Source of the DNA: an uncultured bacterium
Lineage (GTDB): Bacteria; Patescibacteriota; Kazan-3B-28
Assembly (NCBI GenBank): GCA_963695435.1
Contig: OY968788.1
Coordinates: 413,456 to 477,455 of the forward strand
Direction: 5' to 3'
DNA: 64,000 bases
Shown: positions 274 to 25,281 of the stretch, in pieces
Layout of the letters: every line of letters starts with the position of its first letter
Position numbering within the stretch: position 1 is the first letter of the stretch
Position numbers and translations under genes: made by a program
The notes under the pieces: model-generated
Told to the model about the DNA's origin: nothing
Databases searched by the model: none
What the model saw: only the letters and a program-made list of their open reading frames with translations

Positions 274-1776
274 TCATTTGCGACGATTAGGTTTAGATTT
301 GGGTATAAGAAGTTCCTGACCAGCCCGCAAACGATACGGTGGGTGCAGACGATTCAGGCGAATAATAGTTTCGATTGTGGTACCAGCAAATTTAGCCACA
401 TCTTCAATCGTATCGCCACGGTCTACAATCACTACTTCGGCGGCAATATTTTTTTCAGTGGAAATAATTCCCTGCATCCGCTTGGAGATTTCGTGAGTGT
501 TGCGCCGACTAAAGAAATGAGTAAATGCTTTTGTGATAATATTCCGATGACCCAAAACTTGCTGGAGACGTTCTTGCCACTCGCTCTGTTGCAGTTTGCC
601 AATTGGGATTAGTAGCTTTTCACCAGCTTTGACTTCGTATGGCCAGCGCAAAAGATTAAACTTGGCCAATATCCGAGGATCGGCGCTCATCTTAGAAGCT
701 ATTTTGGTAAGTGTGTCGCCAGCTATTACGGTGTAGATGGTAGTTTTGGTTTTTAACCGATTCACAATTAGGTAATACAACCAAACTGAACGCAACAGGT
801 AGGCAACAAACAATGCGATTAGTAGGTAAAGTATCTCGGTCAACGGGAAGACCCAAAAAACATATCGTTTGGTAATCACAATTTCCGGTAGCTGAGTCTT
901 GGTACGATCTTTATTAACCTGCTCCCGAGCGGGAAGATGGAAAGTAAAATCGGCCACAAATCGACCGAAGTAAGGCGCTCTCCGTACCCATGCGCCTTCT
1001 AGTGTAGTAGTTTGACCTCGAGCGATGGTCCCATAAGTAGCACCTGTTTGTTCACCAACTTTGCCAAAAAATCCTCTAACTTTAATATCAATTTTGGGGG
1101 TAAGTCGAACATTGCCTTGATTATCAAATTTAATTCGGAAAAGTAATTTACGATTATCACCACGCCCCGAAACAACATGATGACCGATTTTTTTAATAAA
1201 CAAGTCTCTTTTAATGTCGCCGGGGACAATGTTATATACTCCAACTCCAATACGGGTCAGGATTTGAGCACCATTTCCTTTGGTTTGGGCTTCCGGTACG
1301 ATTTCTTGAGCATAGATTTCTCCTTGATAGTCGCCAACATCAGCATTATCAGGAACCTTGATAGTAAACTTTGCTACCGCCTCACTATGCGCTTTTAGCG
1401 TAAACCGATTTTTTTCAAAAGTAATCCAAGTACCAGTGTTGGGTTGTTTGTCGGGAGTGGTTTCAGCGGGCGACAAAGTATAGTCTGGATTAAGAGTTGA
1501 GCCACCACCGAAGAGGATGAATGTCTTGGTTTCGTTGGATGTATTTAAAACGGTGATAGCGTCATCCAGCTGTTCGCCTTCCGCCAAAACATAACCATAA
1601 TAGTTTCGATTTATCCCGCTACCTATGGTGGGGTCGAGGGCGATACCGTCATAGCCAATCTGACCAGCAACCACAACGGGTGCAAGTTGCTGAATAATCG
1701 GTAAAATGGCTATCAAAAACAAGCTTAACCTAACAACTGTCCAAATTCTTTTTTTCCCCAACACTTTCATAAACAA
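274..1776 (-). CDS. Surface protein: signal peptide, DUF916-like beta-sandwich N-domain, one TM helix, two C-terminal LysM domains. Paralog of 19473..20912.
   Basis: N-terminal hydrophobic signal. Motif KFTIKVPDNADVGDYQGEIYAQ matches KFTVNVPLDADVGDHIGGLAVY in the paralog. TM segment FWVFPLTEILYLLIALFVAYLL. Two LysM-like blocks (YTVIAGDTLTKIA...LLIPIG and VVIVDRGDTIEDVA...ELLIPK). Confidence 0.7.
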   Translation of the reverse strand: MFMKVLGKKRIWTVVRLSLFLIAILPIIQQLAPVVVAGQIGYDGIALDPTIGSGINRNYYGYVLAEGEQLDDAITVLNTSNETKTFILFGGGSTLNPDYTLSPAETTPDKQPNTGTWITFEKNRFTLKAHSEAVAKFTIKVPDNADVGDYQGEIYAQEIVPEAQTKGNGAQILTRIGVGVYNIVPGDIKRDLFIKKIGHHVVSGRGDNRKLLFRIKFDNQGNVRLTPKIDIKVRGFFGKVGEQTGATYGTIARGQTTTLEGAWVRRAPYFGRFVADFTFHLPAREQVNKDRTKTQLPEIVITKRYVFWVFPLTEILYLLIALFVAYLLRSVWLYYLIVNRLKTKTTIYTVIAGDTLTKIASKMSADPRILAKFNLLRWPYEVKAGEKLLIPIGKLQQSEWQERLQQVLGHRNIITKAFTHFFSRRNTHEISKRMQGIISTEKNIAAEVVIVDRGDTIEDVAKFAGTTIETIIRLNRLHPPYRLRAGQELLIPKSKPNRRK

Positions 1777-1831
1777 ACACTGCTCTAATACGGAGTATGC
1801 TTTTTTATTCTATTACAAACCCGACTGTAAG

Positions 1832-3337
1832 TTAAGAAATGGATGCGTTGTTCTTTGGCTGATATTGCCATAACAGAGAAAATTCGTCCGAGTAAATGAG
1901 TTTCCACCCCATGGGGTTATTTCCCAGCACATTATTAACCAGATGTTCTCTGGGCAACAGAATAATTTCAGGATGCCACTTGTCAACCATTTCGGTAATG
2001 TCTTTCGGGTTAAGAGATAGCAACTTAGTGTAGTCATCAAAGATTCGCAAACCGTTTTGACGCCAAATTGCCATTCTCCCGTCAATAAACAATTTGTATT
2101 CAGGCAATTGCCAGATAATATAACCGCCCCAACCATACTCGGTAACAAGTCTCACGTCGGGCGAAAAGTGTTGTTTAATGTAATCCGTTGCTTGAGTGGG
2201 GTAGCCAGTAGCTTGACCGTAACTAATAGACGAAGCAAGAGCCGTTCTCAAAACATCAACTCTGTTTAGCCCCCAACCAAATACTAATATCACCAGAATC
2301 AACAACAGCCATGTTCGACGAGCTAAATCCCGTAATCCGTGTTCGACTACCGGCCCTAATTGTTCAATCAGCAATGGCAAACTAACCAGAGCGAAAAGGG
2401 GCAAATGTCGCCAAGAGGTAACGCCGAAAAAGAAAAATGTGACAGCTAACACTAATTTAGTGAGGTCAAAATTGAACCTATTAATGAATATTAGAACGAT
2501 TATCAGAACACCCAAAATGACAGCATTGTAACTGCCGGATGATTGCAGAGTGACTGGCAACCATTCGGCAATTCGGTTCAAAATGTCGGACTGACTAAGG
2601 GTGTCGTAAATTTCTCGATAAATATGCCAACCGTAAGGATTAATCAGAGTAGCTAATAATCCCCCGCCTATGCCGATAAAGCCTAAGCGAAATAGTTCTT
2701 GCCAACTTAGGAGATGTAAATTTTTAGCAGGACGCGGACCAGCCAAAATTCGGCGGAGTGCCTCCCCTACTATAAACATACCAATTACGACAAAACCGCT
2801 TAAAAAGCCACCGTGAAAATTGACCCAGACAAAAAACAAAATAGGCAACCAGTACAACAATTTAATCCGCTGGTTTTCTCTCCAAGCAAATAGAATCAAC
2901 ATAGTAATAGCTGTGCCCACCAGCGTCAGCATTTGCGGACGCACACCGATGATGTTCCAACAAACCAACAGAGCGATGACAGACCCCACAATGGCGGATA
3001 ACGGAGTTTTTCTAAATTGTTGCATGCGAGTCGGTAGCCAGAAGGCTAAAACAATTATTAGTGAAAATAAAATTACCAATGGCCAGAGACCACCAATATG
3101 GTAGAGGACATACATAATTCGGTCTGTCATCCATTCATGGGCAATCCAAGGGAAATTTGGCATCGACCAAGAAAAAATATCGGTATGAGGCGGGAAAAGA
3201 TGAGCCCAAAGATAACGTCCGCTGCCCAAATGCCAGCCTAAATCTGGATCGCCCGGCAGACTAAGTGCGAAAAACAGCAAAAATGACAAAACGATACCTA
3301 TAAACCACCAATTTCGATTAAAAAAGATTTTATTCAT
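1832..3337 (-). CDS. GT-C fold polytopic membrane glycosyltransferase (ArnT/PMT/YfhO-like). Paralog of 17827..19395.
   Basis: More than 10 predicted TM helices. Conserved DPDLGWHL loop near the N-terminus and a C-terminal EYGWGGYIIWQLPEYKLFIDGRM block, both shared with 17827..19395. 4-bp overlap (ATGA) with the upstream gene. Confidence 0.6.
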   Translation of the reverse strand: MNKIFFNRNWWFIGIVLSFLLFFALSLPGDPDLGWHLGSGRYLWAHLFPPHTDIFSWSMPNFPWIAHEWMTDRIMYVLYHIGGLWPLVILFSLIIVLAFWLPTRMQQFRKTPLSAIVGSVIALLVCWNIIGVRPQMLTLVGTAITMLILFAWRENQRIKLLYWLPILFFVWVNFHGGFLSGFVVIGMFIVGEALRRILAGPRPAKNLHLLSWQELFRLGFIGIGGGLLATLINPYGWHIYREIYDTLSQSDILNRIAEWLPVTLQSSGSYNAVILGVLIIVLIFINRFNFDLTKLVLAVTFFFFGVTSWRHLPLFALVSLPLLIEQLGPVVEHGLRDLARRTWLLLILVILVFGWGLNRVDVLRTALASSISYGQATGYPTQATDYIKQHFSPDVRLVTEYGWGGYIIWQLPEYKLFIDGRMAIWRQNGLRIFDDYTKLLSLNPKDITEMVDKWHPEIILLPREHLVNNVLGNNPMGWKLIYSDEFSLLWQYQPKNNASIS

Positions 3338-4938
3338 AACGCAGAGCTGTTATTAAAAACGAACAGAATTTCACGATTATTTCTTAGCCAGTGAACGGTC
3401 GCCTCATCACTTAGGTCGTAATATGCCCAATCAATTTGGGGAAGAAGATTATAGATGGGATGTTCGTAACGCGCGCCTTCCGCCCCCAACACACTTTGAT
3501 CAGGAGTGCGTAAAACATATTTAATATTTGGACCGAGAGTAATGTTATCCAAGAATTCGTGCACTTGTTCTCCGCGAACATGCCAGATTGGGTTGGAACT
3601 CGAAAATGCCTTAGGCGCTAGAGAATAAACATCAAAATCGGGATAATAAAATTGATAGTGCCTAAGGCCAAAGAAAATATATCGATTGGAGGCAACAATA
3701 ACTGTATTCTCGGGAGTGAATTTTTCGTGAATTAATTTGGATGTTTCCGCCGATCCCCTATCCATCACCTGAACCGAGGGCAAACCAGCGCTTAAATAAT
3801 CGTAGGCGTCGGGATTAAGCGTATAAAATTGATAAATCTGGAAAGTTAGTACGGCTATAAAGCTCACCCCAATTACCAAATAGCCATAGATTTTAGAAAA
3901 TTTAGCTGCCACTTTGGCAATAGAGGCGGTACTTGCTCCAGCAAGAACCAATAATACTGGTGTAATAAATAGAAGGTAGCCGTTATTGGTCAGCCAGACA
4001 GTAATCACGAACAATAGACCGGGGATGATGGTTAATGACCAAAACCAGACCCAAGGCCAGCTGATTTTAAGATACTGTTTGGATTCGCGAGTAATAAACG
4101 GTATTGCACCCAAACCCAGCAACACCAAGACAGGCAGGAACGCCGAGCGTAATAAAGTAACCGCAAAACTTAAGCGACCAATCATAGCCTTGAAAGTAAT
4201 GGAGTTAGAAGGGTCGAGTGAAATTAGACTGGTCAACCGCCAATTGAGAGCGAGGTATTGGCCCAATCCCCCCGAGATGATTATCAGTGGGATTGCCCAG
4301 AGCAAATTGAGCCCAACCCAGAGTGGCAAAGCCCAGTTGATTTGTCGCCGCCAGTTTTTATAGTGCAGAAAGACAAAAACTATTAGTGGCAGGGTGATAA
4401 TAGCCGAGAATTGACGAATACCACCCAAAAAGGCGCTGATCACCAATAACCAGACTAGAGTAGTATTGCTAGGATGACGAAAGTGGCGATAAGCTACAAG
4501 AATCAAACCAGCAACCACAACTGTTTCAACGATGTAAACTTCAGCAACTAAACCGTGAAACCAAATTGATGAATTGAAAATAAACCAAATACCGGCTAAA
4601 CAACCAACTAATTCACCAAATGCTTCGCGACCAAGTTGATAAATTAACACAAAACCAACAATTGACGCCACAATCCCTAGAATAATTAATGCAAGATTGG
4701 GATCGTGAACAACATAATTTATTAATTTGGCAAGTTCTACATATAAAATGTAGCCTGGTGGGTGGGGTTGGTGTTTAATGAGATCAAAATTATTAATAGC
4801 CAAGGCAAACTGAGCTGAATCCCAGTGGTAGAGATAGTGAGCGTGATACATCCAGCGAGTAATGATAATCGTCAGTGCTCCGACTGTCAGGCCGATATAC
4901 CGCCACCAGTAGTAGTTGAAATTACGCAACTTAACCAT
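3334..4938 (-). CDS. GT-C fold membrane glycosyltransferase (PMT_2/GT39/GT83-like).
   Basis: Polytopic membrane protein. First extracytoplasmic loop carries an HPPGY motif resembling the HPP(L/F) loop-1 motif of GT39/GT83 enzymes. Large C-terminal soluble domain. Translationally coupled to 1832..3337. Confidence 0.55.
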   Translation of the reverse strand: MVKLRNFNYYWWRYIGLTVGALTIIITRWMYHAHYLYHWDSAQFALAINNFDLIKHQPHPPGYILYVELAKLINYVVHDPNLALIILGIVASIVGFVLIYQLGREAFGELVGCLAGIWFIFNSSIWFHGLVAEVYIVETVVVAGLILVAYRHFRHPSNTTLVWLLVISAFLGGIRQFSAIITLPLIVFVFLHYKNWRRQINWALPLWVGLNLLWAIPLIIISGGLGQYLALNWRLTSLISLDPSNSITFKAMIGRLSFAVTLLRSAFLPVLVLLGLGAIPFITRESKQYLKISWPWVWFWSLTIIPGLLFVITVWLTNNGYLLFITPVLLVLAGASTASIAKVAAKFSKIYGYLVIGVSFIAVLTFQIYQFYTLNPDAYDYLSAGLPSVQVMDRGSAETSKLIHEKFTPENTVIVASNRYIFFGLRHYQFYYPDFDVYSLAPKAFSSSNPIWHVRGEQVHEFLDNITLGPNIKYVLRTPDQSVLGAEGARYEHPIYNLLPQIDWAYYDLSDEATVHWLRNNREILFVFNNSSAL

Positions 4939-4959
4939 TAAGTTTATTGTCGCACAAAA

Positions 4960-4989
4960 TTGACCCCACTTTTATAAGCGGGGTCAATA
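4960..4989 (-). terminator. Intergenic hairpin (ttgaccccgc/gcggggtcaa, followed by a T-rich run on the minus strand) between the WxL-like gene and the downstream GT-C genes. Likely a partial terminator or attenuator.
   Basis: 8-9 bp GC-rich stem followed by ttttgtg on the minus strand. Same placement as terminator 17759..17788 in the paralogous locus. Confidence 0.45.
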
Positions 4990-5027
4990 TAATTCGAATA
5001 ACCTTCTAATTTATAAAAGGTAAAAGA

Positions 5028-5639
5028 TTAAGTACCATCGCTAGCCAGCAATGTTAGCACGAATTTACCCGTATATTCACCAGCAGGAAATACGGCTGGG
5101 ACAGGCACGGTGAATTTTATACCGTTGATTCTGGCTGCCATTGGTGCGTTGTAGGTTGAGTTGAAAATGTTGCGCAGAGTGCCGATTTCTACGTCGTTGC
5201 CTTCGCCAATTCCAATTTTTGTACCATCCCATGTGGCGACATTGCTGATGGTGGCGTTGCCGGGATGGACTTTAATGGTGCTGGCCAAAATTGAGTTAGT
5301 GCCACTATTCATATTGCTGGCGTTAACACGAACTGACCAGTAGGAGTTAGCTGCACCGCGTAGGTCACTAACAACATGGTTGCTTAAAACATTATTACCA
5401 GTGGCACCACTACCAACTCCAACAGCAGCAAAAGCCAAGGCAATATCACCATTGCTTAACGAAAGAGCACCGGCGGTAACTCCAATGTTGGTATCGATAT
5501 TATTAGTTAGTCCTGCAAAAACACCTGCTTGCGAATTGAACCACATCAAGCCGACGACCAAAAGAATTAGGCCGCCATAAATTTGTTGTGTTACCTTTGC
5601 TTGGACCTTGTGTAATACAAGATCATTACTGTTTTCCAT
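5028..5639 (-). CDS. Small secreted surface protein with N-terminal signal anchor and a WxL-like C-terminal domain. Paralog of 17108..17734.
   Basis: TM anchor GGLILLVVGLMWF. Gly/Ala/Asn/Thr-rich body. W-x-V/L motifs (SYWSVRV, ATWDG). C-terminal YTGKFVLTLL resembles the second WxL motif. Probable start at MENSND (5637-5639) preceded by AGGGGG; the ORF track extends to 5681. Confidence 0.55.
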   Translation of the reverse strand: MENSNDLVLHKVQAKVTQQIYGGLILLVVGLMWFNSQAGVFAGLTNNIDTNIGVTAGALSLSNGDIALAFAAVGVGSGATGNNVLSNHVVSDLRGAANSYWSVRVNASNMNSGTNSILASTIKVHPGNATISNVATWDGTKIGIGEGNDVEIGTLRNIFNSTYNAPMAARINGIKFTVPVPAVFPAGEYTGKFVLTLLASDGT

Positions 5640-6046
5640 TTTCCCCCTAATGGTACTCTTGTTGTTATTCGACATTTTCATTTTATTTTATTTTTGTTTT
5701 GTTGCGCAATAGTTTTTTTTCAAATTCTTTTTTCTGTGTTCTTCAACTGATTACTTTATTTTTTTATTCAATCAGTTTCTTTAGAATTTTCTTTTACTTT
5801 AGTTTGCACAAATTATTTTTCTTTTCTATTCAACAACTCTTGATTTGTAATAACTTTCTCAAAAAATGTTGTAAATCATTTTAGCAAGTGAAGGTCAGAG
5901 AAGTAAATTTATTTTCAAATTCGATTGGCGTTTTTTGGAAATTTCTAAATACTTTTTATCCTAATTACTTTAGTATATCACAATTATTATAAACTGTCAA
6001 TACCAACGGTTTCTTGAGATTGATGAGGGTATGCTAAAATCTAGGT

Positions 6047-7915
6047 ATGCCACCTTCGTCCAACAGATTAGCAAAGCAGATAACTAATTGGGCTACTGGC
6101 GTTCTATGGGGAGCTTGGGGGCTGGCTTTGGCGTTGGCGGCACGGGGCTTATTTAGCTCCAGCATTCACCGTACGCATGATACAACCCCATATCTGTGGG
6201 CAAAAGCAATGTTTGAGATGTGGCAAAGGGGTTGGTGGTGGCCTCAATGGTTGCCACAAGTTTGGGTTGGATTTGGGGCTCCGGTATTTCACTACTATGC
6301 TCCGTTGTATTATTGGTGGGTTAGTCTGTTCCAGCTGATGGGGCTAAATGCAATATTGGCCACCAAAGTAGTATTGATTATTAGCTTATTCCTCGGGGCA
6401 TGGGGAATGTACCGATTAGCCAGACATTGGTTTGGACTGGAAGCCTCACTGCTGGCAAGCGGGTTATTTGTTTGGGCACCATATTATCTGGCGTTGCTGT
6501 ACACTCGGGGAGCTTTCCCAGAATTTTTTGCTCTAAATCTAGTACCTTGGATTTTGTGGGCACTGGTGACCTACTATCGAAAACCAGCTCGCTGGATATG
6601 GATAGTATTGGTACTGGGTTTGGTCGGAGTGATTCTATCGCATACGCTGACTTCTTTTGTGACGGTAGCGGTGGTAATCGCCATGCTGTTTTATCTTTAT
6701 TATGGCGAGATAAAAAATCGCCGAGCGATTGGCCGAATTGGCCTAGCTGGTTTAGTAGCCTTAGGCCTGACGGCGTTTTATTGGCTGCCAGCACTAGTAG
6801 ATGCCAAACTAATCAATGCAATTTATCTAACCGTCAGTAAATTTGACTATCACCTTTCTTTCCCTAGTTTAGTCAATCTGATAAATCTGTATCGAGATCG
6901 TGAACAAGCTTGGCTGTCGGTTGGGGTGGTTCATTCGGCAACATGGTTAGCCGGATTATTGGTGTACTTTATTGTTCGGCGTCAGCCCTCGGCTAAATTA
7001 TTAGCTGTCCTACTAACCATCTCGGGGATTTTAATTTTTATGGCACTGCCGATTTCTCAATGGATTTGGCAAACTCTACCCGAACTGGCATATTTCCAAT
7101 TCCCTACTAGGTTCCTTGGTCCAGCGGCTATTTTTATTGGTCTAATCGGTGGTTGGTTAGTGCAACAAGCACCAACTGAAGCCAAGGCGCGAGCCAAATT
7201 GGCTAGTGTGATTTTGCTATTGGTTGTAATGGCCAACCTACCGGTATCATCCAATCTGGTTAGTTGGCTAGAGCACAACACAACCGCCGAAAGCTTAACG
7301 ATGAATGAGTATGTGGCTCTTAGATTTGCAACTTCATACGCAGGAGCTGTGAACGGCGTGGGATTGTTTGTTGCTGATTCGGGTATTATGCCGTCAGAAT
7401 ATTTACCTAGTGAATATGTAACAAATCCTAAAACTTATGTCGCCAATGACAGCGAGCCACTAATCACTTACGGTATTGATAACGCCGAACAGCGCTTGGT
7501 TGATGATAAAACATTGAGTCCGTTGCCACTGTTTGAAACTGTAAGTGGTCAGGCGACCATAAATATTCTGGTGGATAAGCCATGGCAAACTCAAGCCGAG
7601 ATTGATGCGACCACAAATACAACATTACAGATTAACCGCATGCGTTTCCCATTATGGAAAATTACTCTGGACGGTAAACCGGTTACGACTTATCTGAAAA
7701 CTGGGGTGTTGGGACAGTTTATGAGCATACCGGTCGGAAAGCACACTTTAGAAGTTAGCTGGAAAAACTCATTAGTTATGATTTGGTCGAGAGTTTTCTC
7801 TGGATTATCGGCGCTGGCACTGTTGGTCGTACTGGTTTTCTCTCGGCTAAGAACGAAAAAATCTGCTAAACTGGTTGCGTATGGCAAAAAAGATAAGAAA
7901 CGCAAAAGCAGATAA
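6047..7915 (+). CDS. GT-C fold membrane glycosyltransferase (YfhO/oligosaccharyltransferase-like) with large C-terminal extracytoplasmic domain.
   Basis: About 12 TM helices. Trp/Tyr-rich first loop (WQRGWWWPQWLPQVW...HYYAPLYYWW). About 230-aa soluble domain, then a final TM and a KKDKKRKSR tail. Confidence 0.5.
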   Translation: MPPSSNRLAKQITNWATGVLWGAWGLALALAARGLFSSSIHRTHDTTPYLWAKAMFEMWQRGWWWPQWLPQVWVGFGAPVFHYYAPLYYWWVSLFQLMGLNAILATKVVLIISLFLGAWGMYRLARHWFGLEASLLASGLFVWAPYYLALLYTRGAFPEFFALNLVPWILWALVTYYRKPARWIWIVLVLGLVGVILSHTLTSFVTVAVVIAMLFYLYYGEIKNRRAIGRIGLAGLVALGLTAFYWLPALVDAKLINAIYLTVSKFDYHLSFPSLVNLINLYRDREQAWLSVGVVHSATWLAGLLVYFIVRRQPSAKLLAVLLTISGILIFMALPISQWIWQTLPELAYFQFPTRFLGPAAIFIGLIGGWLVQQAPTEAKARAKLASVILLLVVMANLPVSSNLVSWLEHNTTAESLTMNEYVALRFATSYAGAVNGVGLFVADSGIMPSEYLPSEYVTNPKTYVANDSEPLITYGIDNAEQRLVDDKTLSPLPLFETVSGQATINILVDKPWQTQAEIDATTNTTLQINRMRFPLWKITLDGKPVTTYLKTGVLGQFMSIPVGKHTLEVSWKNSLVMIWSRVFSGLSALALLVVLVFSRLRTKKSAKLVAYGKKDKKRKSR

Positions 7916-12114: not shown

Positions 12115-12143
12115 ACCTCTTATTGTACCGTATCCTCCTGACC

Positions 12144-12170
12144 TGTCATTCCCGCGCAGGCGGGAATCCA
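12144..12170. repeat. Small hairpin repeat, family 2 (ATTCCCGC-loop-GCGGGAATGACA).
   Basis: 8-bp perfect stem. Copies at 30548..30574 and 38500..38526 with compensatory stem changes (cccgc/gcggg versus ccagc/gctgg). Confidence 0.7.
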
Positions 12171-12209
12171 TTTTCTCCGTCATGCTGAATTTAGTTCAGT
12201 ATCTTTTTT

Positions 12210-12742: not shown

Positions 12743-12746
12743 AATT

Positions 12747-17033: not shown

Positions 17034-17062
17034 TTGACATAACCTGATTACTGTGCTATACT
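17034..17062 (+). promoter_or_regulatory. Sigma-70-type promoter (TTGACA-N17-TATACT) driving the WxL-like gene at 17108.
   Basis: Exact -35 consensus, 17-nt spacer, 5/6 match at -10. About 45 nt upstream of the ATG. Confidence 0.7.
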
Positions 17063-17758: not shown

Positions 17759-17788
17759 AAATCAGGGCTTATAAGCCCTGATTTTTTA
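17759..17788 (+). terminator. Rho-independent terminator after the WxL-like gene.
   Basis: aatcagggctt-ata-aagccctgatt followed by TTTTTTAT. Confidence 0.8.
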
Positions 17789-17826
17789 TTTGTACCGATA
17801 AATTAGTCTTATGGTAATCTAATACT

Positions 17827-19395
17827 ATGAGACGCCGTAAACAGCAACCGCGATTCTCTTTGCCACTAACGATAGCCAGAACAACTGTTGCTAAGAAGTG
17901 GCGAGAGTTTTGGAATCAATTCGATACGCTAACTTGGTTGCTGTTTGGTCTGCTTCTGACTTTTTGCTGGAGGATACCTACAACCGACCCTGATTTCGGC
18001 TGGCATTTGCGTTCAGGGTTAGACCTGCTAAAGAATTTTTTTGTCCCCAAATTTGACCCATATTCATACACTCTCCCCGATTGGCCGTGGGTGAACCACG
18101 AATGGCTGGCTGACGGGTTGGCAGCTCTAATTTACAAAGCAGGTGGAATCTGGGGGCTAAGCTTGGTGTTCGCAATCCTTCTGATAGGAATCTTTTTATT
18201 GGCTGCTTCTGCGACCAAAAAAGTAAAAAATAGATATAAAATATTGGCTGGTCTGGTAGCTATTTTGGCAGCATCACCGATTTTGGGGGTTCGAATGCAG
18301 ATGATTACCCTCTTGGGGATGGTCTGGCTCTTGTGGATTTTATATCGCTATCGTATTGGTGAAATTAAGCACCTGTGGTGGCTTCCTGTTATCTTTCTTT
18401 TTTGGGCAAACCTTCACGGTGGATTCTTAATGGGGTTTGTTGTTTTGGGAATATTCTGGTTAGTTGAGGGTATAAAGTTTATCGTCAAACAGTATCGGCT
18501 GAAGTGGTATAAGTGGTTAAAAATTGATGAGGCGAGTTTGGGTGGACCAAAACTTAAACATCTCCTTCTGATAAGCGGATTATCTTTTCTTGCGACCTTC
18601 ATCAATCCTTACGGCTGGGGGCTGTACTACGATTTTTACAAATTATTTACCAATCCTTTTGCAATAAAGAATATTTCGGAATGGCAACCAGTATCATTGG
18701 CTAGCACCTTGTCGGCGAACTTTACGCTGTATATGATTTTGTTCGCAGTGCTTTTACTTTTGACTTACCGAAAAGTTGAGCCGACTCGCTGGGCGATTAC
18801 GGGTTCATTTTTATGGCTTTCGTTTTTGTATTGGCGTAATCTCCCCTTCTTTATGGTGATGAGTGTTGGTTTTTTGGCGGAAACAATTCAAGAACATACG
18901 CATCTGATTTTTGACTATATAGCCCGACAACGCTGGATACTGGTCAGTTGGGTGATAATTGTTGGAATTATTGTGTCCCAACAGATTATTAGTATTAGTG
19001 ACCGGATACAGTACCCTACTATCGGCTTACAGGCGGCTGGTTATCCTGTGGAGGCGGTGAAATGGATTCAGCAAAACCGCGGAGAATTGGGTGACAAAAT
19101 GTTCAACGAATATGACTGGGGTGGTTATCTCATCTGGAAATTACCCGAATACAAAGTATTTCTAGACGGTCGGATGCCTTACTGGCAGATTGGCGACAGA
19201 TTCCCCTTTGTTGATCATCAGTATGCAATGTCGGCTCAAGCGGGTTCGATTGAAATGTTGGAAAATAAGTATGGGGTGGACTGGTTTCTAATTAGACAGG
19301 GACGACCGTTGGCCGTTGCGTTGTATGGGCAAACTGAAAAGTGGAAAGAAGTATATCGTGACGGAGCAGCAGTGATTTATCGGAAAATTATTTAG
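17827..19395 (+). CDS. GT-C fold membrane glycosyltransferase. Paralog of 1832..3337.
   Basis: Shares the DPDFGWHL loop and the C-terminal EYDWGGYLIWKLPEYKVFLDGRMPYW block with 1832..3337. More than 10 TM helices. Confidence 0.6.
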   Translation: MRRRKQQPRFSLPLTIARTTVAKKWREFWNQFDTLTWLLFGLLLTFCWRIPTTDPDFGWHLRSGLDLLKNFFVPKFDPYSYTLPDWPWVNHEWLADGLAALIYKAGGIWGLSLVFAILLIGIFLLAASATKKVKNRYKILAGLVAILAASPILGVRMQMITLLGMVWLLWILYRYRIGEIKHLWWLPVIFLFWANLHGGFLMGFVVLGIFWLVEGIKFIVKQYRLKWYKWLKIDEASLGGPKLKHLLLISGLSFLATFINPYGWGLYYDFYKLFTNPFAIKNISEWQPVSLASTLSANFTLYMILFAVLLLLTYRKVEPTRWAITGSFLWLSFLYWRNLPFFMVMSVGFLAETIQEHTHLIFDYIARQRWILVSWVIIVGIIVSQQIISISDRIQYPTIGLQAAGYPVEAVKWIQQNRGELGDKMFNEYDWGGYLIWKLPEYKVFLDGRMPYWQIGDRFPFVDHQYAMSAQAGSIEMLENKYGVDWFLIRQGRPLAVALYGQTEKWKEVYRDGAAVIYRKII

Positions 19396-19472
19396 CTGAC
19401 AGATATGTAAAGAATAAACTCACCTGTTGGCGAGATACTTTATCCTAGAGAAAAGTCACGAATTAGCATAAA

Positions 19473-20912
19473 ATGGAATCTGTGAACAATCGAAAATTGT
19501 TAGCACGAACAACTGGAATTTTACTCTTGACTGTAGCGTTGTCAGCTGTGGCAGCTTTGCCTATGTCGGCTTTAGCATTGTCTACGGGTAGTATGGGTAT
19601 ATTACCCGCTCATCCAGATCCGAGTATCCCTCTCTCTAGTAGCTGGTTTTTATATGAAGTGGATCCTGGTGCCACCATTGAAGACGCTGTTCAGATATCA
19701 AACCCCGGTGATAAATCAACTAAATTAAAATTGGAAGGTCTAGATGCGGGGATGAATGATGATGGCGGGTTTGGGTTGGCCAGTTCTTCTGAAGAAAATG
19801 AGGATATTGGCAAGTGGATTACTCTGGAAAGTAGCGAAATCAGTCTAGCACCTAAGGAAAAAAAGATTGTGAAATTTACCGTCAATGTTCCCCTTGATGC
19901 TGATGTGGGAGACCATATTGGAGGGTTGGCTGTATATAAGATGAGTGACGTGGCCGACGAGACTGTTAAGGCGGGCGGAGCTAGTGTGGGTATTTCTACT
20001 CGAGTTGGAGCTCGAATTTATTTGACGGTCAAAGGTGATATTGTCCGAAAGTTAATTTTGAAAAGTAAAAAGTTTTTTAGTCGAGGCAAGACAATGCTCT
20101 TTCGATTCAAGTGGGAGAATAAAGGAAATGTTCGCGCCAAACCAATTGCTAATGGAAAAATTTACGGGATTTTTGGAGTGTATCATGTTGTTGATAATGT
20201 TAGTTTGGGCGAAATTTTCCCCAAAAAGAATGTTGTGAGAGAAGTTGCATTACAAGGGAAGGACCGACCAATATTCGGACCGTATTTAGCGGTTCTAAAA
20301 ATCCAAGATGAATTTACAGGTCTTAACCCCACAAACCCAATCCCGACAACCGAACCGTTTACGGTCTGGATGTTCACCTTCTTCATCCCCTACACTCAAG
20401 TTTTGATTCTATTGATTCTGCTGTTCTTGGTTTGGTTCTTTATGCAACTTAGAAAATGGCGACAGATGATTAATCTTTCAAAAACACCAGTGGCCACTTA
20501 CAAAATAAACAAGGGCGATCATTTGACAAGTATCGCATCTCGGTACGGTGTGAATTGGAAATTGTTGGCAAAACTGAACGAAATCAAACCGCCGTACAGT
20601 CTCGACGGAGTTACCCAGATTTATGTGCCTGACGTCAGAGGCACTCGGCGAAATATCCGTGTCCCCCACTTTTTGACCTATATCACCAGACCATTACATC
20701 ATTTCTTGGTTGATTTTGTTGCTCGCTTCTTAAAGAAAAAGAAGCTATATTACACCATCGTGGTTGATGGGAATGATACTAAAGAAGATATTGAGAAGTT
20801 CACTAAAATGAGTTGGGCGGAAATTGCCAGATATAACGGAATTGGAGCAACTGCTCGTCCTAAAGTTGGTCAGGAACTTCGAATCCCTCACCGCCGACTA
20901 AAATCAAAATAA
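19473..20912 (+). CDS. Surface protein: signal peptide, DUF916-like domain, TM helix, two LysM domains. Paralog of 274..1776.
   Basis: Same architecture and conserved motifs as 274..1776. TM segment WMFTFFIPYTQVLILLILLFLVWFF. LysM blocks YKINKGDHLTSIASRYG... and YTIVVDGNDTKEDIEKF...GQELRIP. Confidence 0.7.
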   Translation: MESVNNRKLLARTTGILLLTVALSAVAALPMSALALSTGSMGILPAHPDPSIPLSSSWFLYEVDPGATIEDAVQISNPGDKSTKLKLEGLDAGMNDDGGFGLASSSEENEDIGKWITLESSEISLAPKEKKIVKFTVNVPLDADVGDHIGGLAVYKMSDVADETVKAGGASVGISTRVGARIYLTVKGDIVRKLILKSKKFFSRGKTMLFRFKWENKGNVRAKPIANGKIYGIFGVYHVVDNVSLGEIFPKKNVVREVALQGKDRPIFGPYLAVLKIQDEFTGLNPTNPIPTTEPFTVWMFTFFIPYTQVLILLILLFLVWFFMQLRKWRQMINLSKTPVATYKINKGDHLTSIASRYGVNWKLLAKLNEIKPPYSLDGVTQIYVPDVRGTRRNIRVPHFLTYITRPLHHFLVDFVARFLKKKKLYYTIVVDGNDTKEDIEKFTKMSWAEIARYNGIGATARPKVGQELRIPHRRLKSK

Positions 20913-20914
20913 GT

Positions 20915-23900
20915 ATGAGGTGTTTGATGGTTACTCGTCACCGAATTACTACACAGCGAGCCATTCCCCCATCATCAATCTGGTGGCTAACTGTACTCGT
21001 ATTAGTGAGTTTGTTTTGTGATTTACCAATGGCTGGTGCAGTAACCAACGACGCCATGATGGTCTATGACACTCAAACGATTACCTCAACTCCAAAGTAT
21101 CAACGATGGAACGGATCATGGGGTGGTGAAGCATCAGCTAACACGACCACTGGAGAGATTAGATACATGGAGCTGAAGTTTTCACCCGTAGCCGACCAAG
21201 CTATTTTAGTAACTCAAGGTAGCAGTGGAGTGTTAGAAGCTCAAGTCTGGACAGGAGGAGGAACTAATAGTTGGGGGGCAATCACGATTATTGGGACAGT
21301 CGGAGCTGGGACATTAGAAGGAGCTGGGATTAATGATGGTGAACAGTTTCGATGTTGGGATATTGAGTATGAACAAGTGTCTGGTGATGCGGTAATTGTC
21401 TACCAAGATGGAACGGCCGATCCAGATTACAAAGTGTATTCTAGTGGGGCTTGGTCTGTTAGCGGATCTGACATAAATATTCTCACTACTGGGGCACCGG
21501 CTTGGATCGAGTTAGCTTCATCACCAGGAGAAGATTATTTAGCGATGATTTCGATAGATGTGACGATTGATGTCTATGGTATGCGGTGGAACGGAAGCGC
21601 TTGGGATGATATGAATAGCGGTGGGGCGGAAGCAATTTGGGACACTGGTGGGTCAATCTATTACCGTAAGAGTATTGATGTGGCATTTGAAACTAACTCG
21701 GCTGATATTTTATTTATGTGGTATGACGCCACCCAAGATGTTCAAAACTACCGCAGATACACTCAAGGCACCACCACACTAGAAACACTGCAAACTCTGT
21801 CTATGACCAACCAAGCTGGGTTGGGTCAGTGGGTGCAATTGGCAGCCGACCCAACGGCTGGTTCGGACAAGATTATGTATGTGGAACAAGATGCGCAGTT
21901 AGACATTTGGTCAGCGTATTGGGATGGTTCAGCTTGGACGGCTGAGACTGTCGCCCATGATGCGACTGTGGAAATTGTGACTAACATGAACTTTGATGTA
22001 GCTTGGGAAACCTATACTGGTCATACTGGTCATTGCTGGATTGTGTATGGTGATGGGGCTGGTACGTCATCTCGACATTGGAACGGCAGTAGCTGGGACT
22101 CTGTCTCCACCACTCCAACTAGTGATGATGATACTGGGCATGTTCGAGTAGCTGTTCAACCGAATGATGGAACATTATTTGCCATGTCGTACGAAACAAC
22201 TGGTTCAGCTAGTGACAACATTGAAGTTTCATCCAATGCCAGTGGTTCGTCAACTTGGGGAGCCCAAAGTGAAATCTGGGCTGGACCGACTGTAACCGAC
22301 ACTGCGACGGTGGCATTAGGTGGCACTTTCCGGATGGCGATTGCGGCGGAGATATACAGCTCTTCAACCGACGCCATGATGGTCTATGACACTCAAACGA
22401 TTACCTCAACTCCAAAGTATCAACGATGGAACGGATCATGGGGTGGTGAAGCATCAGCTAACACGACCACTGGAGAGATTAGATACATGGAGCTGAAGTT
22501 TTCACCCGTAGCCGACCAAGCTATTTTAGTAACTCAAGGTAGCAGTGGAGTGTTAGAAGCTCAAGTCTGGACAGGAGGAGGAACTAATAGTTGGGGGGCA
22601 ATCACGATTATTGGGACAGTCGGAGCTGGGACATTAGAAGGAGCTGGGATTAATAATGGTGAACAGTTCCGATGTTGGGATATTGAGTATGAACAAGTGT
22701 CTGGTGATGCGGTAATTGTCTACCAAGATGGAACGGCCGATCCAGATTACAAAGTGTATTCTAGTGGGGCTTGGTCTGTTAGCGGATCTGACATAAATAT
22801 TCTCACTACTGGGGCACCGGCTTGGATCGAGTTAGCTTCATCACCAGGTGAGGATTATTTAGCGATGATTGTCCTAGACCAAAACACAGATGTCTACGGC
22901 ATGCGGTGGAATGGGAGTGGCTGGGATGACATGAACAGTGGTGGAGATGAAGCTGTCTGGGACACAGCTGCAGCTTTGTATTACCGCAAATGTATTGATG
23001 TAGCATTTGAAACTAACTCCAACGACATTTTATTTATGTGGTATGACGGTGTCCAAGATGTTCAAAACTACCGCAGATACACCCATGGCACCACCACACT
23101 AGAAACACTGCAAACTCTGTCTATGACCAACCAAGCTGGGTTGGGTCAGTGGGTGCAATTGGCAGCCGACCCAACGGCTGGTTCGGACAAGATTATGTAT
23201 GTGGAACAAGATGCGCAGTTAGACATTTGGTCAGCGTATTGGGATGGTTCAGCTTGGACGGCTGAGACTGTCGCCCATGATGCGACTGTGGAAATTGTGA
23301 CTAACATGAACTTTGATGTAGCTTGGGAAACCTATACTGGTCATACTGGTCATTGCTGGATTGTGTATGGTGATGGGGCTGGTACGTCATCTCGACATTG
23401 GAACGGCAGTAGCTGGGACTCTGTCTCCACCACTCCAACTAGTGATGATGATACTGGGCATGTTCGAGTAGCTGTTCAACCGAATGATGGAACATTATTT
23501 GCCATGTCGTACGAAACAACTGGTTCAGCTAGTGACAACATTGAAGTTTCATCCAATGCCAGTGGTTCGTCAACTTGGGGAGCCCAAAGTGAAATCTGGG
23601 CTGGACCGACTGTAACCGACACTGCGACGGTGACATTAGGTGGCACTTTCCGGATGGCGATTGCGGCGGAGATAGCTGAATCGGCAACACTGGGTATCAC
23701 CGCCCCAACTGATGTCACATTAACCACTGGCAATCCGGGAACAACCGTGGATACGACTTTTGGGACTGGTGAAAAAGTGACTCTGACGGATGGCGGCGCG
23801 GGCTGGACTTTGAGTGCACGGATGCTGGCTACTTTGACTTCAGGCAGTTATACGATTCCCAACACTAATGTGTACTTGCGCAAAGACGGAAATGTCGGAT

Positions 23901-24115
23901 CAAGTGATACTTACACGATTTGGTCAGGAACTTACACTAATGTATCCGAAACAAACGCCACCGAATCGCTGGACGCTTCTCGAACAGTTGGCATACGAAG
24001 CAGTGGAACAGGGGGTGATTCTACCGAAGTGCGACCTAGCATTCAATTGGTGATTCCGCCCAGCCAGACACCAGCCTCAGATTATGCTGGCTCAATCCGA
24101 TTTACTGTCATATAG
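20915..24115 (+). CDS. Giant secreted protein: signal peptide, two tandem 440-aa beta-propeller-like units (W-N-G-S-x-W blades), C-terminal WxL-like domain.
   Basis: Internal 1320-bp tandem duplication (21051..22370 and 22371..23690). Each unit has 7-8 blade-like subrepeats (YxxWNGSxW with DGxxxxxVY). C-terminus has GAGWTLSA (WxL) and ends YAGSIRFTVI, like the two small WxL-like proteins. Confidence 0.6.
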   Translation: MRCLMVTRHRITTQRAIPPSSIWWLTVLVLVSLFCDLPMAGAVTNDAMMVYDTQTITSTPKYQRWNGSWGGEASANTTTGEIRYMELKFSPVADQAILVTQGSSGVLEAQVWTGGGTNSWGAITIIGTVGAGTLEGAGINDGEQFRCWDIEYEQVSGDAVIVYQDGTADPDYKVYSSGAWSVSGSDINILTTGAPAWIELASSPGEDYLAMISIDVTIDVYGMRWNGSAWDDMNSGGAEAIWDTGGSIYYRKSIDVAFETNSADILFMWYDATQDVQNYRRYTQGTTTLETLQTLSMTNQAGLGQWVQLAADPTAGSDKIMYVEQDAQLDIWSAYWDGSAWTAETVAHDATVEIVTNMNFDVAWETYTGHTGHCWIVYGDGAGTSSRHWNGSSWDSVSTTPTSDDDTGHVRVAVQPNDGTLFAMSYETTGSASDNIEVSSNASGSSTWGAQSEIWAGPTVTDTATVALGGTFRMAIAAEIYSSSTDAMMVYDTQTITSTPKYQRWNGSWGGEASANTTTGEIRYMELKFSPVADQAILVTQGSSGVLEAQVWTGGGTNSWGAITIIGTVGAGTLEGAGINNGEQFRCWDIEYEQVSGDAVIVYQDGTADPDYKVYSSGAWSVSGSDINILTTGAPAWIELASSPGEDYLAMIVLDQNTDVYGMRWNGSGWDDMNSGGDEAVWDTAAALYYRKCIDVAFETNSNDILFMWYDGVQDVQNYRRYTHGTTTLETLQTLSMTNQAGLGQWVQLAADPTAGSDKIMYVEQDAQLDIWSAYWDGSAWTAETVAHDATVEIVTNMNFDVAWETYTGHTGHCWIVYGDGAGTSSRHWNGSSWDSVSTTPTSDDDTGHVRVAVQPNDGTLFAMSYETTGSASDNIEVSSNASGSSTWGAQSEIWAGPTVTDTATVTLGGTFRMAIAAEIAESATLGITAPTDVTLTTGNPGTTVDTTFGTGEKVTLTDGGAGWTLSARMLATLTSGSYTIPNTNVYLRKDGNVGSSDTYTIWSGTYTNVSETNATESLDASRTVGIRSSGTGGDSTEVRPSIQLVIPPSQTPASDYAGSIRFTVI
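21051..23690 (+). repeat. Two-copy 1320-bp in-frame tandem duplication inside the giant surface gene.
   Basis: Flanks of the units are nearly identical at the nucleotide level. A central stretch of roughly 220 bp (21551..21770 versus 22871..23090) is diverged at both synonymous and nonsynonymous sites. Confidence 0.9.
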
Positions 24116-24153
24116 ACTGGCTTTAGATTCCTTCTGGAAGGTATAATTGGAAT

Positions 24154-25281
24154 ATGCGATTTACCTCTGACCTGATAATTAGCGCTTTGGCCGTATTATT
24201 ACTACTGGCTGGCGCTTTGTGGTTGCCGTTAGTCGGGGCTAGTACTGGAAATATGGGGATGTCTCTGGCTGTTGTTGAAGAGGACGACGGTGGCGGCGGA
24301 AGTGGTGGCGGAGGTGGTGGAAATCCAAATCAACCGTCCACACCAGTTATCCCTGTTGTGCCTGTTGTACCCGTACCGCCGAAAGAGTTTAGATTGGTGG
24401 ATTATGTGCCCAAAGTTATACCTGCATATCGCGATACGCCAATCGTTCTGTACGGCTACAATTTCCCTTCAGATTTCAAAATTGTGGTGAAAGCCAGAGA
24501 TGCAATGTTGGTGGCAGATAGCGCTATGGTGAATAAGAAAACTGTCATAATAGAGGGGGCTGTATTAGAGGCCGTACAATATGTTGTTCCCGCAAAAACA
24601 CTAACGCCGGGTGAGGCGGTGTTGCTGATTCAGGAAGCCGACAAGGCGTTAACTTCTCCGTTACCGATATTAGTGTACGATTCTGTCAAAAGAATAAATT
24701 TGCGGGCGCAGATCGCCGAGCGAACAATTAATATAATTGTTGCTAGTGGTCAGTCAGCCAATGTCACCGTCAAATTTAAAAACATTGGGCTGACCGAATG
24801 GGACTATTTGCTCCAGCCGTTACATATCGGTACCAATAGCCCTCATGATCGGCAATCCCGATTTATTCACAAAGATTGGCCCTATAACAATCGGGTGGTA
24901 AAAGTAAGTTTGCCGCCGGATGTAAAGACGGGCGAAACATTTGATGCCACCTTTCCCATCCAAGCCCCCGTGGTAAAACGAACTACTCGTTACACCGAGA
25001 ACTTTGCACTGGTAGCAGAGGGCATCGCTTGGATTCCCGGTTCTAACTTTACCGTCCGGATTACCGTTTCCGCACCGGTGGCGGAGAAGATAGTAAAAGC
25101 GACTACCCAAAAAACTACGCCGGTACCCGCTGTCAAAAAGCCCGCTGCCCCCTACAAAATTCCTAATACCATACCAGCAACTGCTGTTAAGAGTGGTAGT
25201 TGGTTGAGCGGGATAAAATCATTCCTTGCGCAAGCACTTGGTCTTGTGGGAACATTAGCCAGTAATTTACTCCCTAAATAA
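24154..25281 (+). CDS. Secreted, C-terminally anchored hypothetical protein with Gly-rich and Pro-rich linker.
   Basis: Signal peptide. Linker GGGGSGGGGGGNPNQPSTPVIPVVPVVPVPP. C-terminal hydrophobic segment. Directly follows the giant surface gene. Confidence 0.45.
   Translation: MRFTSDLIISALAVLLLLAGALWLPLVGASTGNMGMSLAVVEEDDGGGGSGGGGGGNPNQPSTPVIPVVPVVPVPPKEFRLVDYVPKVIPAYRDTPIVLYGYNFPSDFKIVVKARDAMLVADSAMVNKKTVIIEGAVLEAVQYVVPAKTLTPGEAVLLIQEADKALTSPLPILVYDSVKRINLRAQIAERTINIIVASGQSANVTVKFKNIGLTEWDYLLQPLHIGTNSPHDRQSRFIHKDWPYNNRVVKVSLPPDVKTGETFDATFPIQAPVVKRTTRYTENFALVAEGIAWIPGSNFTVRITVSAPVAEKIVKATTQKTTPVPAVKKPAAPYKIPNTIPATAVKSGSWLSGIKSFLAQALGLVGTLASNLLPK

Follow-up and report, generated by a model that had tools for sequence, protein, structure and literature searches.

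The WxL (csc) clusters of the Lactobacillales and Bacillales (Siezen 2006; PMC9772566; PMC10599100) place in one cluster, with the small gene first, a small WxL protein, a large passenger protein ending in a WxL domain, and a DUF916/PGBD protein with a C-terminal membrane helix, the WxL-interacting protein (WxLIP). By the published definition, such a cluster has one or more WxLIPs and two or more WxL proteins within four genes (PMC10599100). Clusters of this type have so far come from lactobacilli and enterococci; the survey of Hassan et al. 2023 lists one Kazan DUF916, only as an orphan (PMC10599100). The same components, again in one cluster and again with the small gene first, are found in the 64,000-nucleotide stretch of DNA analysed here (the window), which comes from a single uncultured Kazan bacterium of the CPR, and in Kazan they are always accompanied by a gene for a membrane sugar transferase.

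The reading favored here, with a probability of about 0.72, is that the window holds two anciently duplicated, divergently oriented csc-type WxL surface-display clusters of the Kazan-lineage CPR, with embedded GT-C glycosyltransferases. Most of the interpretation offered in a preliminary description of this DNA survives, supported by HMM evidence and by synteny. Its statement that the arrangement had not been described for CPR needs qualification: an automatic UniRef name, "WxL domain-containing protein", already attached to a Kazan homologue, and the orphan listing of a Kazan DUF916 both pre-exist.

Two mirror-image clusters

Locus A (1-6000, minus strand) and locus B (17034-25281, plus strand) are mirror images with a common gene order: small WxL-like protein, GT-C, WxLIP. 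All nine ORFs of the preliminary description are present where it placed them, and the common order that it reported is confirmed; the corresponding genes are paralogous, and the order has been retained despite an identity of only 26-32%. Two of its points fall. The loci are ancient paralogues, their duplication being neither recent nor, as had been proposed, internal to one locus; and locus A continues past 274, with another DUF916-like gene that begins at 277 and leaves the window across its left edge. Spacing is tight: gaps of 61-77 nt separate the GT-C genes from the WxLIP genes, and the PMT-like and GT-C genes of locus A overlap by 4 nt.

The small genes had been seen as promoter/terminator units in their own right, and elements of both kinds can be made out at each. 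Promoter-like sites of identical type (TTGACA, 17 nt, TATACT, with a TG extension; 11/12, by consensus match only) lie upstream of both, at 5972..6000 on the minus strand in locus A and at 17034..17062 on the plus strand in locus B. On the 3' side of the locus-B gene is a terminator-like hairpin (17759..17784, plus; 11-bp stem, 4-nt loop) followed by a T-run. Its locus-A counterpart (about 4955..4988, minus; found by eye) consists of ATTGACCCCGC, an 8-nt loop and GTGGGGTCAAT, followed by TTTTGTG, and was missed by the scanner because of one G-T pair.

The WxL proteins

The small secreted protein of locus A is encoded at 5028..5639 (minus): the ORF reaches 5681, and the most likely start is at 5639, behind an AGGGGG ribosome-binding site, which yields the 203-aa product on record. 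Its locus-B counterpart (17108..17734, plus) is 26% identical to it (5028-5681) end to end, with a BLAST E value of only 0.005. The proposal that these proteins are WxL-like holds at the level of profiles and fails at the level of a direct Pfam match: the WxL model, PF13731, finds none of the window proteins. Two close homologues do match it (best E 1.3e-5), and P0005, a homologue of the locus-B protein, carries PF13731. A profile of the small-protein family recovered 176 relatives among 1.84 billion proteins; Pfam WxL is present in 92 of the 135 that were scanned (best E 1.6e-27), in many of them at the extreme C-terminus. A further profile, made from 114 distant relatives only and excluding the window proteins, scores the locus-A protein at 124 bits and the locus-B protein at 118 bits; both belong to the WxL family. 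The first motif of the locus-B protein, DLRGTKAGWSI, is conserved and its C-terminal motif is Y-x3-FTLTIV; in the second Trp-x-Leu motif of the window's WxL modules, Phe or Leu stands in place of Trp.

The large protein of locus B (20915..24115, plus; 1066 aa) is made of two ~430-aa repeat units, in both of which the motif W-[ND]-G-S-x-W recurs, and a C-terminal WxL-like domain; the repeat halves correspond to a 1311-nt tandem repeat with 95.7% DNA identity. The domain occupies the last 144 residues (aa 923-1066, nt 23681-24112) and, as the preliminary description had it, is WxL-like: it scores 39.5 bits against the distant-relative HMM, the best of 2000 shuffles reaching 8.2 bits, and with this second WxL protein locus B falls within the published cluster definition. 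In the large protein of L001, the closest relative, conservation is confined to the C-terminus (59% over 141 aa), the N-terminal part being DUF7483 instead. The last gene of locus B (24154..25281, plus) encodes a 375-aa accessory protein with N- and C-terminal hydrophobic segments joined by a Gly/Pro-rich linker; it gave no significant Pfam match and no WxL signal with the distant-relative HMM. The gene is missing from L001, in which PGA_cap comes directly after the gene for the large protein, and it is only a possible member of the system.

The WxL-interacting proteins

The WxLIP of locus A (274..1770, minus; ORF 274-1776; 498-aa product on record) comprises a signal peptide, a PGBD (DUF916), a second beta-rich region, a membrane helix and two LysM domains, and that of locus B (19473..20912, plus) has the same succession from the PGBD onward. 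The two are 28% identical over their full length (E 5e-42). Their designation as DUF916-like is borne out directly in locus B (PF06030, 44.3 bits; cut-off 27.3) and falls below the cut-off in locus A (24.0 bits); PF06030 matches at E <= 1 in all nine Kazan relatives. The two LysM domains are where they had been noted in each protein (64.8 bits in A; 58.3 bits, in two stretches, in B). Eight of the nine relatives keep the whole architecture, the ninth having one LysM; DUF3324/HBD was detected in none of the nine. The LysM pair follows the membrane helix, on its positively charged side, and is accordingly predicted to be cytoplasmic, which is at odds with a wall-binding role.

The gene that leaves the window (1..277, minus) begins in an ATGA overlap with the upstream stop codon; the WxLIP ectodomain HMM gives it 31.9 bits. 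Its product on a Logan contig has 427 aa, with a weak PF06030 and a faint LysM match, and genes for a 706-aa protein and a PaaX_M protein follow there.

GT-C enzymes and a possible sugar supply

The embedded membrane glycosyltransferases of locus A (1832..3337, minus; 503 bits against the family HMM, no match in a Pfam scan) and locus B (17827..19395, plus) are paralogues, 32% identical (E 9e-81), with a GT-C fold whose best matches, STT3, AglB, PglB and DPY19, are all protein glycosyltransferases; their C-terminal domain is similar to the globular, peptide-binding domain of AglB. Locus A alone has the extra GT-C noted previously (3334..4938, minus), which has no sequence relation to this shared STT3-like protein. 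It is of the PMT_2/TMEM260-like type, scoring 24.2 bits, exactly at the cut-off, with the TMEM260-like model and 22.0 bits, below the cut-off, with PMT_2; a 39% identical Kazan orthologue (L021:8302-9894) exceeds both (34.7 and 34.2 bits). A third type, a GT-C-like membrane protein (PTPS_related; 6047..7915, plus; PF10131, 50.0 bits), is transcribed divergently from locus A and has orthologues adjoining the clusters in L021 and L001; three different GT-C types are thus clustered in the window.

Between the two loci lie adjoining genes for a GT2 glycosyltransferase (11296..12183, minus; PF00535, 94 bits) and a GtrA-like small membrane protein (12293..12820, minus; PF04138, 84.7 bits). The former is likely to be a polyprenyl-phosphate-sugar synthase supplying the GT-C enzymes, and the latter may flip the lipid-linked sugar. 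Counterparts of the GT2 are found in L001 (87% identical) and L021 (73%), and in 31-33 of 80 loci from a range of phyla the STT3-like GT-C has a more distant GT2 homologue (36-40% identity) next to it; the GtrA-like neighbor is conserved in L001 and L083.

Conservation in other genomes

The loci are conserved as units in related genomes. L001 keeps a B-type unit and L021 an A-type unit, L081 and L083 have the same modules, and Kazan GW2011_GWA1_50_15 resembles the window in having an A locus (minus) and a B locus (plus), ~18 kb apart. Metagenomic contigs agree: a GT-C gene is inside the cluster in all ten with enough context, and directly upstream of the WxLIP gene in eight of these, although the counts are not independent, several of these loci being from organisms already represented among the genomes.

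What do the glycosyltransferases modify?

Why should a surface-display cluster contain a glycosyltransferase at all? The GT-Cs might be general envelope enzymes, working on a wall polymer or lipid, that have come to sit beside WxL genes by inherited order, in a small genome that rearranges slowly, the two functions being uncoupled. This is a possibility to be taken seriously, though doubtful. The STT3-like family is not tied to WxL proteins by nature: of the 80 species representatives, 78 (Nitrospira, Acidobacteriota and other CPR among them) lack a WxL or WxLIP neighbor; its commonest neighbor across phyla is a GT2 (31 loci). Housekeeping genes, such as those for ArgRS and ProRS, stand between the modules and share in the synteny; with tRNA-synthetase genes interleaved in this way in L083, conserved order in such small genomes does not prove function. 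No cluster protein shows an excess of N-x-S/T sequons. Inherited order is harder to reconcile with the placement of the GT-C between small WxL and WxLIP genes in both ancient paralogous loci, with the same placement in L001, L021, L081, L083 and all ten metagenomic contigs, and with the tight or overlapping gene spacing. Alternatively, the coupling is real and the acceptor is the wall, the GT-Cs modifying peptidoglycan or a wall glycopolymer and thereby making or masking the ligand of the WxL/PGBD proteins. Three-component GT2/GtrA/GT-C systems add sugars from polyprenyl-phosphate monosaccharides to O-antigen and teichoic acids, and the window has their layout, as well as three GT-C types together. 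Nevertheless, the best fold matches, all of them protein glycosyltransferases, and the AglB-like C-terminal domain speak against it, and wall-polymer synthesis genes were not identified in the loci; this version is rather unlikely. Far less probable is that the small proteins and the C-terminal module of the large one form some other beta-sandwich surface family (strand-exchange pilin-like, for example), with the DUF916 protein as chaperone or anchor. The missing second Trp and the missing direct Pfam match would fit. Such a family does not account for Pfam WxL in two-thirds of the scanned relatives (92/135, E down to 1.6e-27), for 118-124 bits against a profile containing neither small protein, or for the UniRef name of the Kazan homologue, and the small-protein structure model behind the pilin match, with a pLDDT of 50.4, is not to be trusted.

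If the loci are indeed WxL surface-display clusters, they might work as follows. [quoted passage not shown] By analogy with Firmicutes, the membrane-anchored WxLIP may hold both at the wall through its PGBD. The embedded STT3-like GT-C, its active site facing outward, would most likely use a sugar from a polyprenyl-phosphate carrier that the GT2 would charge and the GtrA-like protein flip, and the acceptor could be either the cluster's own proteins or a wall polymer bound by them. The surface complex may thus be glycosylated, and the clusters point to a way in which Kazan cells may assemble and decorate their surface.

Comparison with known systems

Like csc WxL proteins, those of the window conserve the first motif, D-x-R-G-x-x-A-G-W-x-[VL]. 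The distance from it to the C-terminal motif is 92-103 residues in the small proteins, compared with about 106 reported for csc WxL, and 99 residues in the large protein, compared with about 68. The differences are of host (CPR, not a Firmicute), of content (a GT-C glycosyltransferase inside every Kazan cluster, and no LPxTG protein in these clusters) and of detail: the WxLIP of the window has two LysM after the membrane helix and no detectable DUF3324/HBD, and the second motif of the window modules is without Trp, the Pfam WxL model missing these proteins.

The STT3-like GT-Cs share with STT3, AglB and PglB an acidic [DE]-P-D motif just past the first membrane helix. They are much shorter (~500 aa), are only ~11% identical to those enzymes, give no HMM match to PDB sequences, and have Y-D-W-G-G-Y, WWDYG not being present as such; their conserved partner is a GT2 of polyprenyl-phosphate-monosaccharide type rather than an oligosaccharide assembly pathway. 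The extra gene of locus A resembles the PMT/TMEM260-type protein O-mannosyltransferases, matching the PMT_2 model below its cut-off and the TMEM260-like model at it, and its orthologue passes both. With the GtrA/GtrB/GtrC-type systems the window has in common a GT2, a GtrA-like protein and outward-facing GT-Cs encoded together; unlike theirs, its GT-Cs are set not in O-antigen, teichoic-acid or phage contexts but within surface-protein operons.

Two ancient loci on opposed strands

Three gene pairs connect locus A (minus strand, running off the left edge of the window) with locus B (17034-25281, plus strand): the DUF916/LysM proteins (274-1776, minus, and 19473-20912, plus; 28% identity, E 5e-42), the membrane proteins (1832-3337, minus, and 17827-19395, plus; 32%, E 9e-81) and the small proteins (5028-5681, minus, and 17108-17734, plus; 26%, E 0.005). 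The last of these matches is weak, and is backed by scoring against the distant-relative WxL profile introduced below. The preliminary description was right to call the loci paralogous, and its nine open reading frames are all present; it was wrong to end locus A at 274: a second DUF916-like gene, whose start at 277 overlaps the stop codon of its predecessor, carries the locus past the window edge. On a short-read contig this second gene (427 aa) is followed by the gene of a 706-aa protein and then by a PaaX_M gene. (A technical note: the first DUF916 protein of locus A was also considered as a 500-aa product with a TTG start; that version is absent from the record, in which the 498-aa, ATG-start version is present.)

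A recent duplication can be discarded: the paralogues are 26-32% identical, as against 37-58% for orthologues in other Kazan genomes, and the duplication is therefore older than those Kazan lineages. CP011216 (Kazan GW2011_GWA1_50_15) also carries its A-type locus on the minus strand and its B-type locus on the plus strand, with ~18 kb between them, so that this divergent arrangement is older than the separation of the lineages concerned.

Both small genes have an identical, strong promoter-like site on their 5' side (TTGACA and a TG-extended TATACT, 17 nt apart), and a hairpin with a T-run lies 3' of both (found by scan at locus B, read by eye at locus A). As sequence matches, then, the promoter/terminator unit proposed for each small gene is there at both loci. 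The leader from promoter-like site to small-gene start is ~330 nt, very A-rich and unusually long in locus A (5640-5971, minus), and only 46 nt in locus B.

Probable WxL domains in the small proteins and at the C-terminus of the large protein

No window protein matches the Pfam WxL model PF13731, even at E <= 10; among close homologues of the small proteins, two of six reach it (best E 1.3e-5) and one carries it. One Kazan homologue bears the automatic UniRef name "WxL domain-containing protein". A word-indexed homologue search with the small protein returned only 5-9 relatives, and an exhaustive search of representatives was needed: among 1.84 billion representative proteins, a profile of ten family members finds 176 relatives at E <= 0.001, many of them 341-924 aa long and matching at the very C-terminus. 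Pfam WxL is matched by 92 of the 135 relatives scanned (best E 1.6e-27). Because circularity was to be avoided, a second profile was built from the 114 most distant relatives alone. Against it, the small proteins of the window score 124 and 118 bits, and the only other match among the 189 window ORFs, at 39.5 bits, is aa 923-1066 of the 1066-aa protein of locus B (20915-24115, plus), to which a WxL-like C-terminus had been correctly attributed. Isolated as a 160-residue fragment, this C-terminus scores 48.1 bits, while the best of 2000 shuffles reaches 8.2. (Another technical note: HMMER's default filters remove the large protein, so that the --max option is needed.) In Pfam's own terms the WxL assignment accordingly fails for the window proteins and succeeds for most of their scanned relatives: the probable membership of the window modules in the WxL family rests on profile transitivity, without a direct PF13731 match.

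The first WxL motif is conserved as D-x-R-G-x-x-A-G-W-x-[VL], reading GWSI, YWSV and GWTL in the window modules, with the Trp kept in 121 of 135 relatives. It is the only one of the two Trp-x-Leu motifs that the window modules have: in the second, Phe or Leu replaces Trp (FTL, FVL, FTV), and the consensus of the whole environmental branch, Y-x-x-T-L-T-L-T-L, has no Trp either. The domain is the entire mature protein in the small forms and aa 923-1066 of 1066 in the large one; in both it forms the very C-terminal end, and N-terminal hydrophobic segments, seen by inspection, mark the proteins as secreted. This small-and-large architecture is the reported layout of WxL proteins and matches the profile relatives with a C-terminal hit. 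Searched against PDB sequences, the small-protein profile finds nothing significant.

Inside the large-protein gene lies a tandem duplication (21046-23674) of 1311 nt, 95.7% identical and containing 300-nt stretches at 100% identity; the 19 residues at which the repeat units differ are clustered within the stretch aa 213-284. Where short-read contigs contain the upstream gene, they stop near the start of the repeat. The last gene of locus B (24154-25281) was considered as a WxL or sortase-anchored protein and rejected: the profile finds no WxL signal and no LPxTG is seen by eye.

The WxL-interacting proteins and their LysM tails

The DUF916 protein of locus B scores 44.3 bits against PF06030 (current name WxLIP_PGBD), above the 27.3 cut-off; that of locus A, at 24.0 bits, falls below it, though it is homologous to the locus-B protein (E 5e-42). 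The DUF916 assignment holds by the model for the one and by homology for the other, and all nine Kazan relatives match PF06030 at E <= 1. At the same threshold none of the nine matches DUF3324, the HBD of WxL-interacting proteins (WxLIPs); a region of ~140 residues occupies its position after the PGBD (DUF916).

A C-terminal transmembrane helix is evident on inspection of the alignment, as a conserved hydrophobic stretch (PYTQVLILLILLFLVWFFMQL) followed by a basic one. It is here that the Kazan proteins depart from the WxLIPs of Firmicutes: the helix is trailed by ~140 residues with two LysM domains. Two stretches in each window WxLIP match LysM (PF01476; 64.8 and 58.3 bits), as had been described, and LysM is present in all nine Kazan relatives. 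The tail covers aa ~305-479 of the locus-B protein (19473-20912) and ~320-498 of the locus-A protein (274-1770); in nine of nine Kazan homologues it follows the single membrane helix on the side of the basic residues (RKWRQ...; C-terminal RRRR), one of them (L021:12918-14138) being exceptional in having a single LysM. Because a basic stretch stands between helix and LysM, the positive-inside rule predicts a cytoplasmic LysM pair. LysM domains normally bind peptidoglycan outside the cell, and a cytoplasmic pair would not fit wall binding.

Under the definition of Hassan et al. 2023 (PMC10599100), locus B is a WxL cluster: within four genes it encodes a small (17108-17734) and a large WxL protein (20915-24115) and, between them, a WxLIP (19473-20912). 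Of locus A, the window contains one WxL protein and two WxLIPs; its large WxL protein is likely the 706-aa protein beyond the left edge, whose orthologue in GW2011_GWA1_50_15 carries a C-terminal WxL-like domain.

The embedded GT-C proteins

The membrane protein shared by the loci matches nothing in Pfam or NCBIfam, and its family, with more than 1100 homologues, has no Pfam model. It has a multi-pass membrane core of GT-C architecture. For an AF2 model built from 50 sequences (pLDDT 92.5), Foldseek's best 12 hits are without exception STT3, AglB or PglB, which upholds its naming as a GT-C; the comparison values are 15.9 for AglB, 15.7 for STT3B, 15.2 for DPY19, 14.3 for ArnT, 13.5 for PglB and 13.0 for Pmt4. 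The family profile finds nothing significant among PDB sequences. An acidic motif, [DE]-P-D-F-G-W-H-L (P55, D56, G58 and W59 invariant in 50 sequences), adjoins helix 34-48 of the model, directly after the first helix; its acidic residue(s), placed in the predicted first extracytoplasmic loop, constitute a candidate catalytic feature. Also invariant are WANLHGGF and, after the last helix, Y-x-W-G-G-Y and D-G-R-M. At the WWDYG position the protein reads N-E-Y-D-W-G-G-Y-L-I-W (Y429, G432, G433 and W437 invariant), a stretch merely reminiscent of WWDYG; since a true WWDYG motif is missing, the protein is not filed as an oligosaccharyltransferase. On the evidence of the model, it is a GT-C enzyme whose fold is nearest to the oligosaccharyltransferases.

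The extra, putative GT-C of locus A (3334-4938, minus) scores 24.2 bits, exactly the cut-off of PF11028, and 22.0 bits against PF13231, below the cut-off of 26.1; its 39% identical orthologue in GW2011_GWA1_50_15 passes as TMEM260-like (34.7 bits) and PMT_2 (34.2 bits). The interval separating the two loci encodes a GT-C of a third type (PTPS_related) as well as a GT2, a GtrA-like protein and a methyltransferase. N-x-S/T sequons are not enriched in any of the nine proteins (all |z| <= 1.5), a result that is neutral, speaking neither for nor against glycosylation.

Conservation and genomic surroundings

A genome scan with the GT-C alignment, one genome per species, kept 80 loci. WxL and WxLIP genes stand beside the GT-C only in the two closest, L001 and L021; the other 78 (in Nitrospira, Acidobacteriota, Chloroflexota, other CPR and other taxa) have no such neighbours, and their commonest one, in 31-33 loci, is a GT2 homologous to that of the window. 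L001 mirrors locus B: small protein, GT-C, WxLIP/LysM and a 1105-aa large protein, in which conservation is limited to the WxL-like C-terminus (59% identity), the N-terminal part being DUF7483. L021, the locus of GW2011_GWA1_50_15, mirrors locus A: small protein, PMT-like protein, GT-C, WxLIP/LysM, second WxLIP and a 1112-aa large protein with a WxL-like C-terminus. Conservation of the loci as units, on which the preliminary description had staked its interpretation, is thereby established, and two more Kazan genomes (L081, L083) have the same modules in other combinations. A metagenome scan with six B-type WxLIP sequences yields 14 loci; the GT-C is in the cluster in all ten contigs with enough context and directly upstream of the WxLIP in eight, counts that are not fully independent, since some contigs and genomes share a source organism.

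A distant metagenome locus (L098, 7099-9716, OBEQ012548269.1) combines two WxL-like genes with one for a 593-aa DUF916-like protein and has neither GT-C nor LysM; both features are therefore lineage-specific additions. Across loci L002-L080, the shared GT-C family occurs in Nitrospira, Acidobacteriota, Chloroflexota and many CPR lineages, often beside a GT2; in Nitrospira a neighbour also resembles a carbamoyltransferase, judged by eye.

Several neighbouring genes of the window deserve mention. Immediately 3' of locus B (25281-26941, plus), with overlaps of 1 and 4 nt, come a PGA_cap gene for capsule synthesis and the gene of a GGDEF diguanylate cyclase; they may be envelope and signalling genes that are transcribed together. 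The genes for ThrRS and MiaA flank a small GIY-YIG nuclease gene (9981-10289, plus), which has a homologue in another Kazan genome (L083, 1767-2051), there next to GtrA and methyltransferase genes. The 23S rRNA gene (32170-35868, minus) has two group I introns (33172-33460 and 32326-32620), and a 5S gene is at 30614-30730; no 16S gene was found anywhere in the 64 kb, and therefore none adjoins the 23S gene. Of the homologues of the window's proteins, the best-named ones belong to 'candidate division Kazan'.

A glycosyltransferase-linked display system?

[quoted passage not shown] The protein interactions, the sugar donor and the acceptor are what we infer; in Firmicutes, PGBD-WxL binding is based on AF2 prediction.

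Why should a glycosyltransferase sit in such a cluster? The main rival explanation sees in the GT-C a general envelope enzyme that owes its position only to inheritance. The distribution of the GT-C outside Kazan and the tRNA-synthetase genes interleaved with the modules in L083 favour this rival; against it stands the fact that both ancient paralogues, and all related clusters, have kept the GT-C. The display reading can be pushed further: the embedded GT-C, of ~500 aa, would found a so far uncharacterised family of bacterial protein glycosyltransferases, compact and STT3-like, that is widespread in CPR, Nitrospirota and Acidobacteriota and was recruited in Kazan as dedicated modifier of a WxL adhesin complex for partner attachment, with the cytoplasmic LysM tail coupling display to the wall-precursor pool. 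We consider this extended version improbable.

The general view of CPR bacteria is that they live attached to other cells. Divergent WxL clusters in these ultra-small bacteria widen the range of the system and supply a specific candidate for the structure by which the uncultured Kazan lineage attaches. The constant presence of an STT3-like GT-C and the LysM tail of the anchor suggest two hypotheses, that the complex or its wall ligand may be glycosylated and that LysM may have an intracellular role; to our knowledge neither has so far been considered for Firmicutes systems. The GT-C family itself is unannotated, its nearest solved folds being oligosaccharyltransferases.

Relation to known WxL systems

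Searches of a literature library found no paper relevantly linking WxL, or oligosaccharyltransferases, with Patescibacteria/CPR. The claim that such loci were undescribed for CPR stands to that extent, and is qualified by the UniRef name and by Table S5 of Hassan et al. 2023 (PMC10599100), which has, each without a cluster identifier, a 476-aa Kazan DUF916 protein (VE98_C0001G0381) and a 329-aa orphan of Candidatus Nanosynbacter lyticus TM7x (TM7x_00820). The former corresponds to the WxLIP found in L081 three genes beyond the GT-C P0039 (VE98_C0001G0378); the survey saw only an orphan because the cluster is invisible at Pfam thresholds. Other hidden WxL clusters may exist elsewhere. TM7x is a cultivated episymbiont, and overlooked WxL partners could exist there.

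The literature treats WxL clusters as a feature of Lactobacillales and Bacillales and links them with virulence and with colonisation of the gut. The Kazan clusters differ from these in phylum, in the embedded GT-C and the LysM-tailed anchor, in the degeneracy of the second motif and in that no HBD is detected.
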